Origin: Eledone cirrhosa
Lineage: Eukaryota
Reading direction: 5' to 3'
Assembly (NCBI GenBank): GCA_964016885.1
Contig: OZ024741.1
Span: 44,578,001 to 44,642,000 of the forward strand
DNA: 64,000 nt
This document shows, piece after piece, positions 1,695 to 60,242 of the stretch. Within the stretch, counting starts at the first letter, position 1. The number at the start of each line of letters is the position of its first letter. The position numbers were made by a program, and so were the translations under genes. The notes beneath the pieces are model-generated. The model was not told the origin of the DNA, did not search any database, and saw only the letters and a list, made by a program, of their open reading frames with translations.

Positions 1695-2088
1695 CAGTAT
1701 TTACGTATCGAGAGAGAAAAAAAAAGGGGGGGGGAGGATAGGTGATACATATAGTTATTTGCCAAGTAGTGCATGCCAAAGGTGCTCTATACTAGTGCCG
1801 GCAGTATTAAATATTCGAATTTAGTGGGCTAGATAGTTAGCAGAGCGTAAGCACGTGGGAAAGTAAGAAATCGGAGAATAGACGGTTAAACATGTTTATT
1901 TAAAACAGCACCTACGTACGTTTCGCCCAGATGGGCTTCTCAAGGGCATAAATAATGCATAAATAATTCTCAAGGGCATACAAAATATTTATGCCCTTGA
2001 GAAGCCCAACTGGGCGAAACGTACGTAGGTGCTGTTTTAAATAAACGTGTTTTAATGGTCTATTCTCCGATTTCTTACTTTCCCACGT
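1695..2088. mobile_element. Asymmetric inverted-repeat PLE-type insertion in (TA)n
   Basis: Arms about 1853-1953 and 1987-2088 (few mismatches), with an unpaired extension on the left. Each arm carries a hammerhead-like motif. Confidence 0.7.
1992..2031 (+). ncRNA. Minimal hammerhead-like motif, variant core CTTGAGAA (mirror copy on minus strand about 1908-1948)
   Basis: TGCC-CTTGAGAA-GCCCAacTGGGC-GAAAC-GTAC-GTA-GGTG. Palindromic stem III as in PLE minimal hammerheads. Confidence 0.6.
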
Positions 2089-2125
2089 ATATATATATAT
2101 ATATATATATATATATATATATATA

Positions 2126-2420
2126 TTCGACACCCACACATACCACCACCACCCCCATTTCACCCATACCCTCCACCCTGGCCCCACCAGGCCGGATCTT
2201 TCACGCACCTCCCCATCATCTTTTTTAACTTCCTTCCCCAACCTTGTCACAATACTCTTATATTTATCTGTTCTCTCCTTATATGAAATTTCCTGAAGAA
2301 GGACGTCTGTCCGAGACGGTGAAACCTCTTCCACTTCCATCAAGCGTGAACCTAATAAAACTGTAAAATTGCTTCCTGTGCTTTCTTTGTTGTTTTGTTT
2401 GTTTCATTTATTAACTAAAT
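2126..2420 (+). mobile_element. 3' end (pLTR) of a C-rich PLE, resembling the end of the 40811-45622 element
   Basis: C-rich UTR, then TTTC-CTGAAGA-aGGACgtctGTCC-GAGAC-ggtGAAA (2289-2324), then AAGCGTGAA..AATAAA and a T-rich tail ending in TA. Confidence 0.6.
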
Positions 2421-4577
2421 ATATAAATATATTTCTGTATATCTATATTTATTTACATATACATATATGCGCGTATCCTTTTGTGTGAAACGTCGAAATG
2501 TTGCCTAATTTCTTAACAAGTGTCTCAGTGTTTCAATATTTATCGCTAACAAAACGCCTTGTTTAGGACCATGTTATAAACATATGATTCATGCTACCCA
2601 ATAAGTTATCATACATATTATTTCTTAATATGTCATTTAAAAATTTTCTTCAAGCTTATTTCTCATGATATATGTATCGTTACTAGAAATAAATATATTT
2701 CTCACAAAATATTCATGCTAAAGGATTAGAAGTAAAGGATTATACATAGTCATATGTACGAAAGATCATTTATTTTTCTTAATTGAGCGTTCATATATAA
2801 CAGAAATAAAAAGGTGTCTTCTTTATTTCCCCAGGAGATATATTTAAATGAAAAAGACAATTGTACAGCAAAAATATTGTGTTTTACATAAAACCTCCAT
2901 ATATCTCTCAATATGACAAACGTCTTAATGAAAATTCTATCGAAAATGCATATAGCAATTTCTTTTTTCTATCTAAAAGAATATATTCTGAATGCAATAT
3001 TTATCGGGAAGTTTCTAAACCTGATTAAAATGCATAAAATTGATTTTCTATAAACTGGAAATGTTATAGCATTGATACCATCATGTATTTTTTTTTCGTC
3101 ACAACGAAATATTTTCATTTTCATTTAAACTTTGATATTCGGTATCATAATCAAAATGTGATCGATTGTATTACATAAACCAATATACTAGAGTATTCTC
3201 TTCTTTATTTCACATGTATTTGTATTCATATCACCAACATCAATGCATTTCTTTTTTTTAATGTTTCTGCCTATGATTCTTGAAAGACCAGCCTGGTATT
3301 ATTCTTCAAAGCTACTGGAAGAATTACAACGAAGTAATTTAACATACCACCAGGTGTGAAATCAGACACAAAGCTTGTTTAATTATGTGAAGGTTTTATA
3401 AACTAAATCAACAAAAGTTGTCAGATTATTTTTTAAAATTTGGCATGTGTTTGATGGATAATGTGATTCTCATAAAAATCATAGTTTGCTTAAAAAAAGA
3501 ACCCAGAAAAAAAGAAACAAAAGCAAAGAACAACAAACAAATATGTGCTGCTAATCATGTCATATTGTTATAATCTGGAATGAGAACCAACATAGTGAGA
3601 TATGTGATTATTTCTTCTAAGAGAAATCAAACATAATTACGACGTTATTTGGTGTATTTCTCTCCAGGAGGAAACAGTCCGTTACATGATGTGTAGCAAC
3701 TAATTTTCTCAAGCAATTATTGTTGTTAAAGTGGTGGTGAAATGATGATTATATAGTTTAATATAGCGTACATAGAAATATGTTTCTATCGGCTTGGAAA
3801 AAGTAAATTACTAATATATATTGTGCGGTGATTATATCCATATATCCATTTTCTTTATGTGACAATAAGAATTTAATGACATGAAAAACTGTATGAATAT
3901 TGTGATATACATGTGCATACACACCCTCACACACATACAAACATATGTTATATATATGAGTATATTTATACATTTATATATATATATATATATATATATA
4001 TATATATATATATGTATAAATATACTCATATGTATGTGTGTGTTTTTGTGTCTGTGTGTGTGCATGTTGAAGGTGACATTGGTTAATAATAGTAATTATT
4101 TACTTCGAGGTTTCGCCAAGGTTGCAGCTAATCTCGGCAAGACGTCAAATTTAGCACACTCACAATTAATTACAAATTATTATATCAATGCTACATAATC
4201 TTACAATCTGTATGTATGTATGTATGCATGTATGTATGTATTTAAGTATGTACGTATAATACAAAATGACGATGAAGTTTCGTTTCCATGTATTTATGCT
4301 TTTATTAATTATAGACCTGTTATGCAGGTTTCACAGATAAGTGGTTCAAAATTGTATCACTTAGACTATCTATCTAGCTAGCTATCGATCTGTCTAGCTA
4401 TCTTTCAGTACGGGTATAGATTTATGGTACCCATTTATGCGTGGTGCATGAAAGCGAATAACTTTGTGTCTTTTCTGGTTTATTTTACATAACCTTACCT
4501 ATTGAGATGCATCCGATACTAGCAGTGAAACTAATGCTAGTCTCGTCAACTTCTTATATATATATATATATATATAA

Positions 4578-58466: not shown

Positions 58467-58593
58467 TAAACATCCTCCATATATATATATATATATATAT
58501 ATATATATATATATATATATATATATATATATATATATATATATATATATGTGTGTGTGTGTGTGTGTGTGTGTGTGTGTGTGTGTGTGTGTA

Positions 58594-58812
58594 TAAACAG
58601 AAGTGTAAGTCAACAGGTTAAAATTAACTTTGTTTATTCATATTCGCTCTTATTTCGGTAATAACCATTATGCAGCAGTTATCACCTCATCATACAGCCA
58701 GAATTTGAACAGAAAAAACAGAAAAACATAAACATAGAAAAACAATTTCATGGTCAGTGCTGAAATATGGTGTTTTCTGAAAGGACTGGACGCTAATTAA
58801 CCAACACATACT
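58594..58812 (-). mobile_element. pLTR fragment of the 4578-6028 family
   Basis: Reverse complement aligns with about 5785-5930. Motif (A)TGATGA-GGTGATAAC..GTTATTACC-GAAA at about 58646-58698. Confidence 0.7.
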
Positions 58813-58880
58813 CATATATATATATATATATATATATATATATATATATATATATATATATATATATATATATATATATA

Positions 58881-60242
58881 AGAATAGAGGTGTAACACAC
58901 GAGTTGTGATATATTAGTAAAAGGAAAAGAAAATGCTGACAAATTTTTCACAGTGAAAAATAGTTTAATTAGGAATAAGTAAAAATTAGTAATAAGTATT
59001 GGTTAGTATTCAGTTTTAGTTTTAAGTTTTTATCGGTTGCGCAATTCTAATGCTTTTCAAAAATAATTTTGAGATAGAGTGCCCGTGATGTTTGCTCTAA
59101 TCTGATCAGTTTTGGAAATTCTACCTGTTTTATGTGAAAAAAGTGGCTCCAGAAGTATTAAGATTTGGTTGGTTGTTGAATGTCACGGGAATGAGTACTA
59201 TAAGTTTAGCGCCAATTCGCGCCTTGCAGTACGTACAATCTGGTCACTCACACACACTTTGGTGTTATGACAATACTATACATCATTTCACCCCTTTTAT
59301 TATTAATGTTTTTGATGTTCTTTTGAGAGAATCGTTTTTGCAAATTACTGAAAATATCAAATAATGTACACCATTTTTACCAGTATCACAAAAATACTGG
59401 TCCATCCACACACACACACATACACACATATACACACACACACACACATATATATACACACACACACTAACATACAAACAGACATATACACACACACACA
59501 CACTTCTCCGTATAAGACAAGAGCTGAAAAATATCTTTCAACATGTTAAAATATCCCCACACACGTACAGACACATTCCTACTGACCAAATCCCTCTACC
59601 ACGAACCACTCTGCTACACACACACACACACACACACACACACACACACACACACACACACACACATATTTGTCTTAATAGACACCTGAACAGTTGACCT
59701 TTCAACATGACTGCAATTCACACACACATCCCTACTGACCATTATCACAACAATGAACCTCTTTACTACACACACACACACATATCTGTCTTAAAATACT
59801 TATTTTTCAGTGACTTCTCAATCAGGCGAAAAAGGACACTCTTCGACAAACCTACATTTGGCGCAAAATCAAGTTTTAACATTCACGTGACCTCTACCGA
59901 CCAATCAAAATTGTTTTGACTACAAGAATTTTTGCAACACGAATTGGCGCGAAACTTATAGTACTCATTCACGTGACATTCAACAACCAACCAAATCTTA
60001 ATACCTCTGGAGTCACTTTTTTCACATAAAACAGGTAGAATTTCCAAAACTGATCAGATTAGAGCAAACATCACGGGCGCTCTATCTCAAAATAAATTTT
60101 GAAAAGCATTAGAAATGCGCAACTGGTAAAAGCTTAAATCTAAAACTGAATACTAACCAATACTTATTACTAATTTTTACTTATTAAACTATTTTTCACT
60201 GTGAACAATTTGTCACCATTTTCTTTTCCTTTTACTAATATA
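58881..60242. mobile_element. Large asymmetric inverted PLE-type insertion
   Basis: Arms about 58909-59220 and 59940-60242, left extension. Degenerate motif TTGAAAA-GCATTagaAATGC-GCAAC-TGGT-A at about 60097-60131. A minus-strand NKRGEMMYS remnant near 59280-59305 resembles a PLE ORF end. Confidence 0.75.

Follow-up and report, generated by a model that had tools for sequence, protein, structure and literature searches.

We analysed 64,000 nucleotides of Eledone cirrhosa DNA (GenBank assembly GCA_964016885.1, contig OZ024741.1; G000:C2:44578001-44642000, hereafter "the window") and find that its (TA)n microsatellite tracts repeatedly enclose short composites, in which two inverted copies of one sequence face each other and only one of the two carries an unpaired extension, or tail, at its outer end. 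These composites are probably 5'-truncated and mostly non-coding copies of Penelope-like elements, along with short units that such elements likely mobilised, and their paired arrangement is best read as the outcome of two-ended priming, with one copy started at an inner site and the other at an outer site of the element RNA. The finding is of a known kind, since the inverted 5'-truncated copy, the one-sided tail, the pseudo-long terminal repeat (pseudo-LTR) and the preference for (TA)n have already been published. The composites provide many natural end points and junctions that bear on how Penelope-like elements integrate.

Asymmetric inverted pairs between (TA)n tracts

An earlier note on the window, made from its letters alone, had proposed that about 15 loci share one layout: (TA)n, a short arm, a spacer, a long arm with an unpaired extension, and (TA)n again. 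We find an inverted repeat at all 15 listed places, with an arm identity of 79-99% that is far above chance, and at 14 of them one arm ends right at (TA)n and the other runs on through an unpaired stretch into (TA)n. The exception is 38996-39215, where contact with (TA)n exists on the tailed side only and arm identity is 79%. The window is AT-rich (GC content mostly 0.28-0.39) and contains 80 (TA)n tracts amounting to 3.7 kb altogether.

We extended the search to a 664-kb sample of the 2.996-Gb assembly (1796 contigs), made up of the window extended by 100 kb in either direction, of C1:200.0-200.2 Mb and of C3:100.0-100.2 Mb; the last of these was taken in place of C5:60.0-60.2 Mb, which was excluded from every count because it is a single satellite array. 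The inverted repeats at the 15 listed places of the window had been established by local alignment of each segment between (TA)n tracts to its own reverse complement, by masked self-BLAST and by direct reading. Loci nested in a larger repeat pair were removed before counting (6375, 6800 and 7169, for example, lie inside 6059/7419), which makes the count of asymmetric loci conservative.

Inverted-repeat search followed by clustering, a check suggested along with the original observation, yields 170 non-nested loci in this sample, 61 of them asymmetric and four symmetric. The remaining loci have (TA)n on one side only (12), extensions on both sides (28, several of which are of the asymmetric type with degenerate TA) or another arrangement (65). 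When the same intervals were placed at random, asymmetric loci numbered 1.8 ± 1.3, and no more than 6 in any of 500 trials. Tails in the asymmetric loci measure 16-256 nt (median 80), and the 61 loci fall into 35 BLAST sequence clusters, which bears out the claim that many unrelated families share the layout. Both flanks of the composites are (TA)n, masking any target-site duplication. By rough extrapolation there is about one composite per 11 kb of the 3-Gb genome, so that they make up a sizeable part of its short palindromes, and inverted-repeat finders would likely call them miniature inverted-repeat transposable elements (MITEs).

Fixed 3' ends, TA microhomology and a candidate hairpin

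We mapped the 3' ends of the arms in five families (7169, 6375, 10743, 50976 and 17005, designated by window coordinate) and find that they are discrete, with two ends in four of the families and three in the fifth, the tandem 17005 family. They lie at unit positions 280 and 444-454 in the 7169 family, 187 (17 arms) and 227 (25 arms) in the 6375 family, 218 (15 arms) and 325 (27 arms) in the 10743 family, 526 (3 arms) and 661-665 (27 arms) in the 50976 family, and 612-615, 626 and 638 in the 17005 family. The earlier note had envisaged priming on UA-containing sites; the arm ends are not at arbitrary sites of this sort but at a few fixed ones per family, in keeping with the tail geometry already published. 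Composites nearly always pair one inner-site end with one outer-site end; independent choice would make at least half of the pairs alike, so this excess of inner/outer over like pairs suggests that the two primings are coupled, possibly on one RNA.

The short arm had been said to stop where the long arm contains TAT or TATA, and the mapped ends agree: TA microhomology is clearly enriched. It could be scored in 49 of the 61 asymmetric loci, the other 12 being without a clean (TA)3 flank. On average, the homology of the short arm overlaps the TA tract by 2.94 nt (1.01 ± 0.19 at random break points), and the overlap reaches at least 3 nt in 31 loci (5.5 expected) and at least 4 nt in 20 (2.6 expected); counted per sequence cluster, an overlap of at least 3 nt is found in 20 of 32. 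A simpler idea, in which the first TA-like site counted from the junction would end the short arm, was rejected, because the 7399-7626 arm has earlier ATAT/ATATA sites.

A hairpin of the form NCUC..GAGN' occurs near the short-arm end in 28 of the 61 loci (4.2 ± 2.0 in shuffled tails). It starts between -2 and +13 nt past that end (median 2), and N pairs with N' in 26 of the 28. The hairpin is present in 17 of the 35 clusters, with a closing pair of G-C in 8 and A-U in 9. When the search windows are moved into the arm as a control, shifts of 70-130 nt leave 0-2 matches and a 40-nt shift leaves 12.

Outer ends often run into variable (TC)n or (TATC)n ahead of (TA)n. These variable stretches at the tailed ends are no more than a hint of reiteration in the telomerase style that the earlier note had inferred. 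As a separate observation, the window copy of the 7169 family differs from the parent at its outer 3' end (7775-7800, 6262-6273), where 11 nt are duplicated internally, which would fit slippage at initiation.

An endonuclease-bearing Penelope-like parent element

A first look at the genome gives 1461 candidates for the long arm at 7399-7800, and those scored are 99% identical to it. Extension of one copy, L033, shows the parent unit of 4199 bp, which has a 280-bp direct terminal repeat and (TA)n at both outer ends and is adjoined by an inverted 5'-truncated copy of 3.16 kb, which comprises the last 3 kb of the unit plus 164 nt. The unit encodes an open reading frame (ORF) of 832 amino acids, whose product is an endonuclease-bearing Penelope-like protein with a reverse transcriptase (RT) fold resembling that of telomerase, a C-terminal GIY-YIG domain and the motifs of the Hydra clade.

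We identified 818 relatives of the ORF at E <= 0.001, several of them with GIY-YIG and the best named ones from a cephalopod and a bivalve. The GIY-YIG family PF01541 scores above cut-off in two of five relatives scanned and is also listed among precomputed domains, and a C-terminal Y..Y+G+T block is conserved across the family. An AlphaFold model (predicted local distance difference test score, pLDDT, of 81) matches telomerase TERT chains best (E 1.3e-8 to 2.6e-8), followed by retron, defence-associated (DRT), LINE-1 and group II intron RTs. Atlas clusters of look-alikes carry HTH_animal and GIY-YIG, with RVT_1 in 92% of the members of one cluster; an hhalign comparison of the ORF with the RT of the long interspersed nuclear element (LINE) in the window gave no match. 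YRDD and FD..FYPSI are conserved in aligned relatives of the ORF, and ADKT, YRDD, CxCX5C, CxxC..E and CxH are conserved in 27 of these; the Hydra-clade features (DKT, the CxCX5C linker, and CxxC and CxH around E/N) are each kept in at least 80% of the 27. As regards the CCHH motif of other clades, which Hydra elements should lack, the core has Cys and His residues, the first Cys not being conserved in the family (consensus A) as judged among the ORF's own relatives only. At the N terminus the motif reads RWR, of which RW alone is conserved.

The 664-kb sample contains 36 Penelope-like ORF remnants, four of them in the window. In the 50976 family the C terminus of such an ORF lies ~200-340 nt upstream on the same strand in 24 of 30 loci, and in the 10743 family it lies ~1.1 kb upstream in four loci. 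The 7169, 10743 and 50976 families are therefore 3' ends of Penelope-like elements, and their ORFs place the 3' ends of the arms outward, as the earlier note had held.

Probable two-ended priming and its alternatives

The composites suggest the following course, each step of which we infer. Both 3' ends of one cut in (TA)n would prime reverse transcription of the element RNA, one starting at the inner and the other at the outer site, and the stretch between the two start sites would become the one-sided tail. The inner site would likely be set by base pairing between the (TA)n primer and 3-5 nt of UA-rich RNA, to which the hairpin starting a median of 2 nt downstream would likely contribute in about half of the families. 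The two complementary DNAs (cDNAs) would then extend toward the 5' end of the RNA and likely become linked head to head, in many cases where the template holds a short palindrome. A further reading is possible though short of probable: the near-obligate inner/outer pairing (61 loci against 4) and the arms with sequence of their own may be the in vivo trace of one concerted reaction, in which two halves of one Penelope complex prime the two cut strands at two different fixed sites, probably on one RNA, with TA pairing (3-5 nt) and the NCUC..GAGN' hairpin, conserved among otherwise unrelated families, positioning the inner start.

The strongest argument comes from the 28 asymmetric composites with a spacer of at least 40 nt. 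Their spacer runs on without a break from the untailed copy in 13 cases and from the tailed copy in 10, the other five being assignable to neither. Each arm holds sequence that is absent from the other in 13 of the 28, and likewise in the L033, 17005 and 50976 composites; neither arm was therefore copied from the other, and two separately primed cDNAs fit best, which favours that part of the earlier proposal in which both ends of a break prime. The 13 to 10 split also disposes of a rule that we considered, by which the longer copy would always be the untailed one; the 10743-family set (30 loci) is query-biased in this respect. In human L1 twin priming, the source of 5' inversions, both 3' ends of a staggered break also prime cDNA on the element RNA, and the products are adjacent, non-overlapping segments of one RNA; the arms of the composites, unlike these products, cover the same unit positions.

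Fold-back self-priming offers a different origin, in which a cDNA begun at the outer site snaps back and itself serves as the template of the second arm, and passages of Arkhipova et al. 2013 (PMC3846280) propose such synthesis for Penelope palindromes. The near-identity of the arms within a composite, the many junction loops of 0-10 nt and the junction of the 10743 family in the template palindrome CATATG (in 8 of 30 loci the two copies stop within 3-6 nt of it) speak for it, but it leaves the fixed stop at the inner site without a cause, and a 6-nt palindrome at an extreme 3' end is unable to self-fold. Moreover, unpaired copies ending at the inner site occur, and in 13 of the 28 spaced composites at least 40 nt of 5' sequence is found in the untailed arm only and the tail in the tailed arm. 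We consider fold-back an unlikely source of the composites. Still less likely is that they transpose whole, as hairpin-bearing non-autonomous elements with an inherited short arm. The recurrence of one junction in several differently flanked loci (6 in the 10743 family, 5 in the 6375 family with a spacer of 5) would suit such transposition, but inner junctions differ, with hot spots, among copies of a family that share their outer ends, and the main copy keeps its 5' end though the partner's inner end differs (in the 10743 family it ends at CATATG in 14 loci, whatever the end of the partner). Inheritance of whole composites is also at odds with the variants that occur in both arms: subfamily variants of one arm are mirrored in the other arm of a composite, and both arms have 16 rare variants in common (70 are confined to one), which is unexpected if arms diverge independently. 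The arms of one composite are mutual best matches in 10 of 12 and in 9 of 16 cases.

Inverted arms, small size, the lack of an ORF and TA at both ends would be equally natural in MITEs or in foldback DNA transposons that target TA (Stowaway or Tc1-mariner type), and we regard this reading as scarcely credible because of the asymmetry (61 loci against 4 symmetric ones), the variable inner junctions, the series of 5' truncations, in which unpaired copies have only the 3' end in common, and the continuity of three families with RT/GIY-YIG ORFs. The earlier note had set true MITEs apart by fixed symmetric termini and constant internal junctions, and we see neither. It is just as hard to believe that the palindromes are assembly artefacts or post-insertion products at unstable AT-rich microsatellites: (TA)n and palindromes are indeed difficult to assemble, but in each family the same pair of ends is met again at dozens of unrelated loci, spread over many contigs, and the rules follow sequence, not position.

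Two-ended priming agrees with the in vitro behaviour of the Poseidon element of Anolis, for which passages of Frangieh et al. 2024 (PMC11167929) describe how AT-rich DNA is cut, with both strands being cleaved and extended, and how RT starts at two internal sites, the interval between them forming the tail.

Several observations weigh against two-ended priming by Penelope-like elements. The Poseidon start site, as described in the same passages, lies in an AC-rich stem-loop, shows no homology to the primer and is used alike on the two strands, unlike the TA microhomology and near-obligate inner/outer pairing seen here. The likeness of the arms could come partly from gene conversion between palindrome arms, and perfect palindromes are compatible with fold-back synthesis too. 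The ORF link is established for only three of the ~15 window families, and when the long arms are matched to the 2-kb stretches that follow ORF remnants, 31 matches are on the same and 27 on the opposite strand, which does not discriminate, so this linkage test is not counted as evidence. The 832-amino acid ORF itself has no Pfam match, RVT_1 included, and a sequence-profile search of the PDB with it found nothing. Finally, Hydra elements are reported to have canonical hammerheads and to be smaller than 3 kb (PMC8557442); the parent unit has 4199 bp, the hammerhead core string is absent from the 4.48-kb copy, and Rfam models found no hammerhead in L033, nor in 53700-54650 or 16990-17900.

Hammerhead-like sequences

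The earlier note had oriented the arms by a hammerhead motif, a basis that we do not retain. Rfam gives no hammerhead in the window at the gathering score, and none at E <= 10 among the matches listed for the whole window (best 150 of 254); Rfam models may miss minimal Penelope hammerheads. The core string used by Craig et al. 2021, CUGANGA-N7-17-GAAA, is present at 6 places in the window (shuffles give 1.6 ± 1.3), and four of the six lie within three listed loci of non-coding families (6375, 38996 and 54125), all reading outward. In families of the 17005 and 47643 types the CUGAUGA strings stand downstream of the GAAA string and match no Rfam model.

Another recurrent motif, GAUGAAA ~35 nt upstream of CACUGAUGA, lies close to the 3' end of several families. 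It is found at 17058-17102 (-) and 17776-17830 (+) and near 30393, 48240 and 56114, with only weak C/D-box small nucleolar RNA-like scores in Rfam (25 bits).

Non-coding families

The Penelope link proposed by the earlier note stands for three families by way of their ORFs. Because the remaining, non-coding families have the same layout, the same target and, in half of the clusters, the same hairpin, they too would depend on a Penelope enzyme, and their short units are likely hitch-hikers mobilised by Penelope-like elements. The 6375 family consists of a ~240-bp unit whose 5' end is defined and, in unpaired copies, borders directly on (TA)n. In the 17005 family the 638-bp unit also occurs in head-to-tail arrays, one of which contains at least 5 units (G000:C20:24332078-24335402), as in retrozyme-like repeats. 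The unit at 18160-18540 is headed by a tRNA-like sequence (18363-18433, +; Rfam tRNA, 41 bits) and is like a short interspersed nuclear element (SINE), inserted in the Penelope manner.

Other features of the window and its surroundings

The composites and Penelope-like remnants of the window are collected in Table 1. Elsewhere in the window, an open frame of 1209 amino acids (22705-26334, +) encodes an endonuclease of the apurinic type, RVT_1 and, at the C terminus, a zinc finger; it is an apparently intact LINE, unrelated to the composites. A GC-rich block at 40000-46000 (GC content 0.47-0.62) has a strong negative GC skew, overlapping open frames and a weak RVT_1 match at 42405-43388, and is probably another decayed retroelement. 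A 100-bp unit found at 35722-36049 and at ~20 other places in the 264-kb neighbourhood is mostly single, forms an inverted pair at 35722-36049 and is not flush with (TA)n; it may be a different kind of element. Outside the counted sample, G000:C5:60000001-60200000 is an uninterrupted array, at least 200 kb long, of a 19-bp satellite with a GC content of 0.48, without (TA)n or inverted repeats, and is a candidate centromeric satellite.

Table 1. Composites, single arms and Penelope-like remnants in the window (window coordinates; strand of each copy in parentheses)
Feature	Position	Strand	Copies, arms and tail	Flanks and remarks
Composite	1687-2087		Tailed copy (-) 1687-1970, tail 166 nt, 3' end 1687	Between (TA)n 1608-1686 and 2088-2126
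Untailed inverted copy of the 1687-2087 composite	~1986-2087	+		NCUC..GAGN hairpin 5 nt beyond short-arm end
Single arm, 7169 family	6059-6273	-	Inner-site end 6059	Adjoins (TA)n 6028-6058; fused directly to ~12 nt of 7169-family outer 3' end (6262-6273), then (TA)n 6274
Composite, ~240-bp non-coding unit	6375-6783		Untailed (-) 6375-6551; tailed (+) 6557-6783, tail 45 nt	
Small composite, kin to 58881 family	6800-6953		Arms 6840-6860, 6933-6953; left extension 40 nt	Right arm abuts (TA)n 6954
Composite, 3' region of 4.2-kb Hydra-clade Penelope-like element	7169-7800		Untailed (-) 7169-7391; tailed (+) 7399-7800, tail 174 nt	
Near-symmetric palindrome	10410-10705		Candidate tailed+tailed pair	(GA)n left, (TATC)n right; outside the earlier list
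Composite, Penelope-like 3' untranslated region (UTR) end	10743-11284		Untailed (-) 10743-10953	Untailed copy ends at unit position 218
Tailed copy of the 10743-11284 composite	10960-11284	+	Tail 107 nt	Junction inside template CATATG
Composite, 638-bp unit (tandem arrays elsewhere)	17005-17842		5'-truncated tailed copy (-) 17005-17233; full unit (+) 17234-17842	Full unit flush with (TA)n
Composite, unit with tRNA-like head	18160-18540		Arms 18202-18326, 18408-18532; left extension 42 nt	
Composite, 141-nt unit	30065-30264		Tailed (-) 30065-30205; untailed (+) 30206-30264	
Weaker composite	38996-39215			Left tail beside (TA)n 38983-38995; right arm end not at (TA)n
Penelope-like ORF remnant, C-terminal part	46989-47456	-		tblastn
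Composite	47643-48363		Untailed (-) 47643-47889; tailed (+) 47903-48363, tail 202 nt	
Composite, Penelope-like 3' UTR	50976-52062		Tailed, more 5'-truncated copy (-) 50976-51547, tail 142 nt	
Untailed copy of the 50976-52062 composite	51548-52059	+		93 nt extra 5' sequence relative to tailed copy
Composite, relative of 30065 unit	52478-52674		Untailed (-) 52478-52533; tailed (+) 52534-52674	
Composite	53755-54102		Tailed (-) 53755-53977, tail 93 nt; untailed (+) 54012-54102	
Composite	54125-54599		Arms 54130-54255, 54391-54537; right tail 62 nt	
Hammerhead-core string in spacer of the 54125-54599 composite	54311-54338	+		6-bp stem II
Two Penelope-like ORF remnants, head to head	56984-57530; 57740-58245	-; +	C-terminal (-) 56984-57530; N-terminal (+) 57740-58245	tblastn
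Composite	58881-60237		305-nt arms 58915-59219, 59940-60237; left extension 28-34 nt	Spacer 720 nt

Comparison with known systems

Endonuclease-bearing Penelope-like elements, as described in passages of Craig et al. 2021 (PMC8557442) and Arkhipova et al. 2013 (PMC3846280), resemble the composites in the pseudo-LTR partial tandem, the inverted 5'-truncated copy, the tail at one end, frequent 5' truncation, insertion into (TA)n and the palindromic inverted junction. They differ in their reported tails of 30-40 nt, against 16-256 nt (median 80) here, and the copies that we describe are mostly non-coding and a few hundred bases long. The Hydra clade in particular is characterised by a C-terminal endonuclease, DKT in place of DKG, a CxCX5C linker and CxxC/CxH around E and N (PMC8557442, section 11). 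The parent element matches it in its single ORF, C-terminal GIY-YIG, DKT, CxCX5C, CxxC/CxH and (TA)n targets, and departs from it in the 4.2-kb unit, the lack of a canonical hammerhead core and the N-terminal RWR with RW alone conserved.

Non-LTR retrozymes, which are non-autonomous Penelope derivatives described in portions of bioRxiv 10.64898/2026.07.22.740005, are likewise short non-coding units related to pseudo-LTRs, and the head-to-tail arrays of the 17005 family recall them; unlike them, the units studied here contain no hammerhead recognised by Rfam. An annotation of octopus repeats (PMC13282606) has separate entries for Penelope-like elements and for MITEs, and this layout is absent from the passages covered. 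We found no paper that quantifies tail pairing or TA microhomology in the main texts covered, and the supplements of PMC8557442 and PMC11167929 may bear on both. To these published systems we add quantified fixed ends, TA microhomology, the non-random pairing of ends, an argument against fold-back synthesis and a candidate positioning hairpin.

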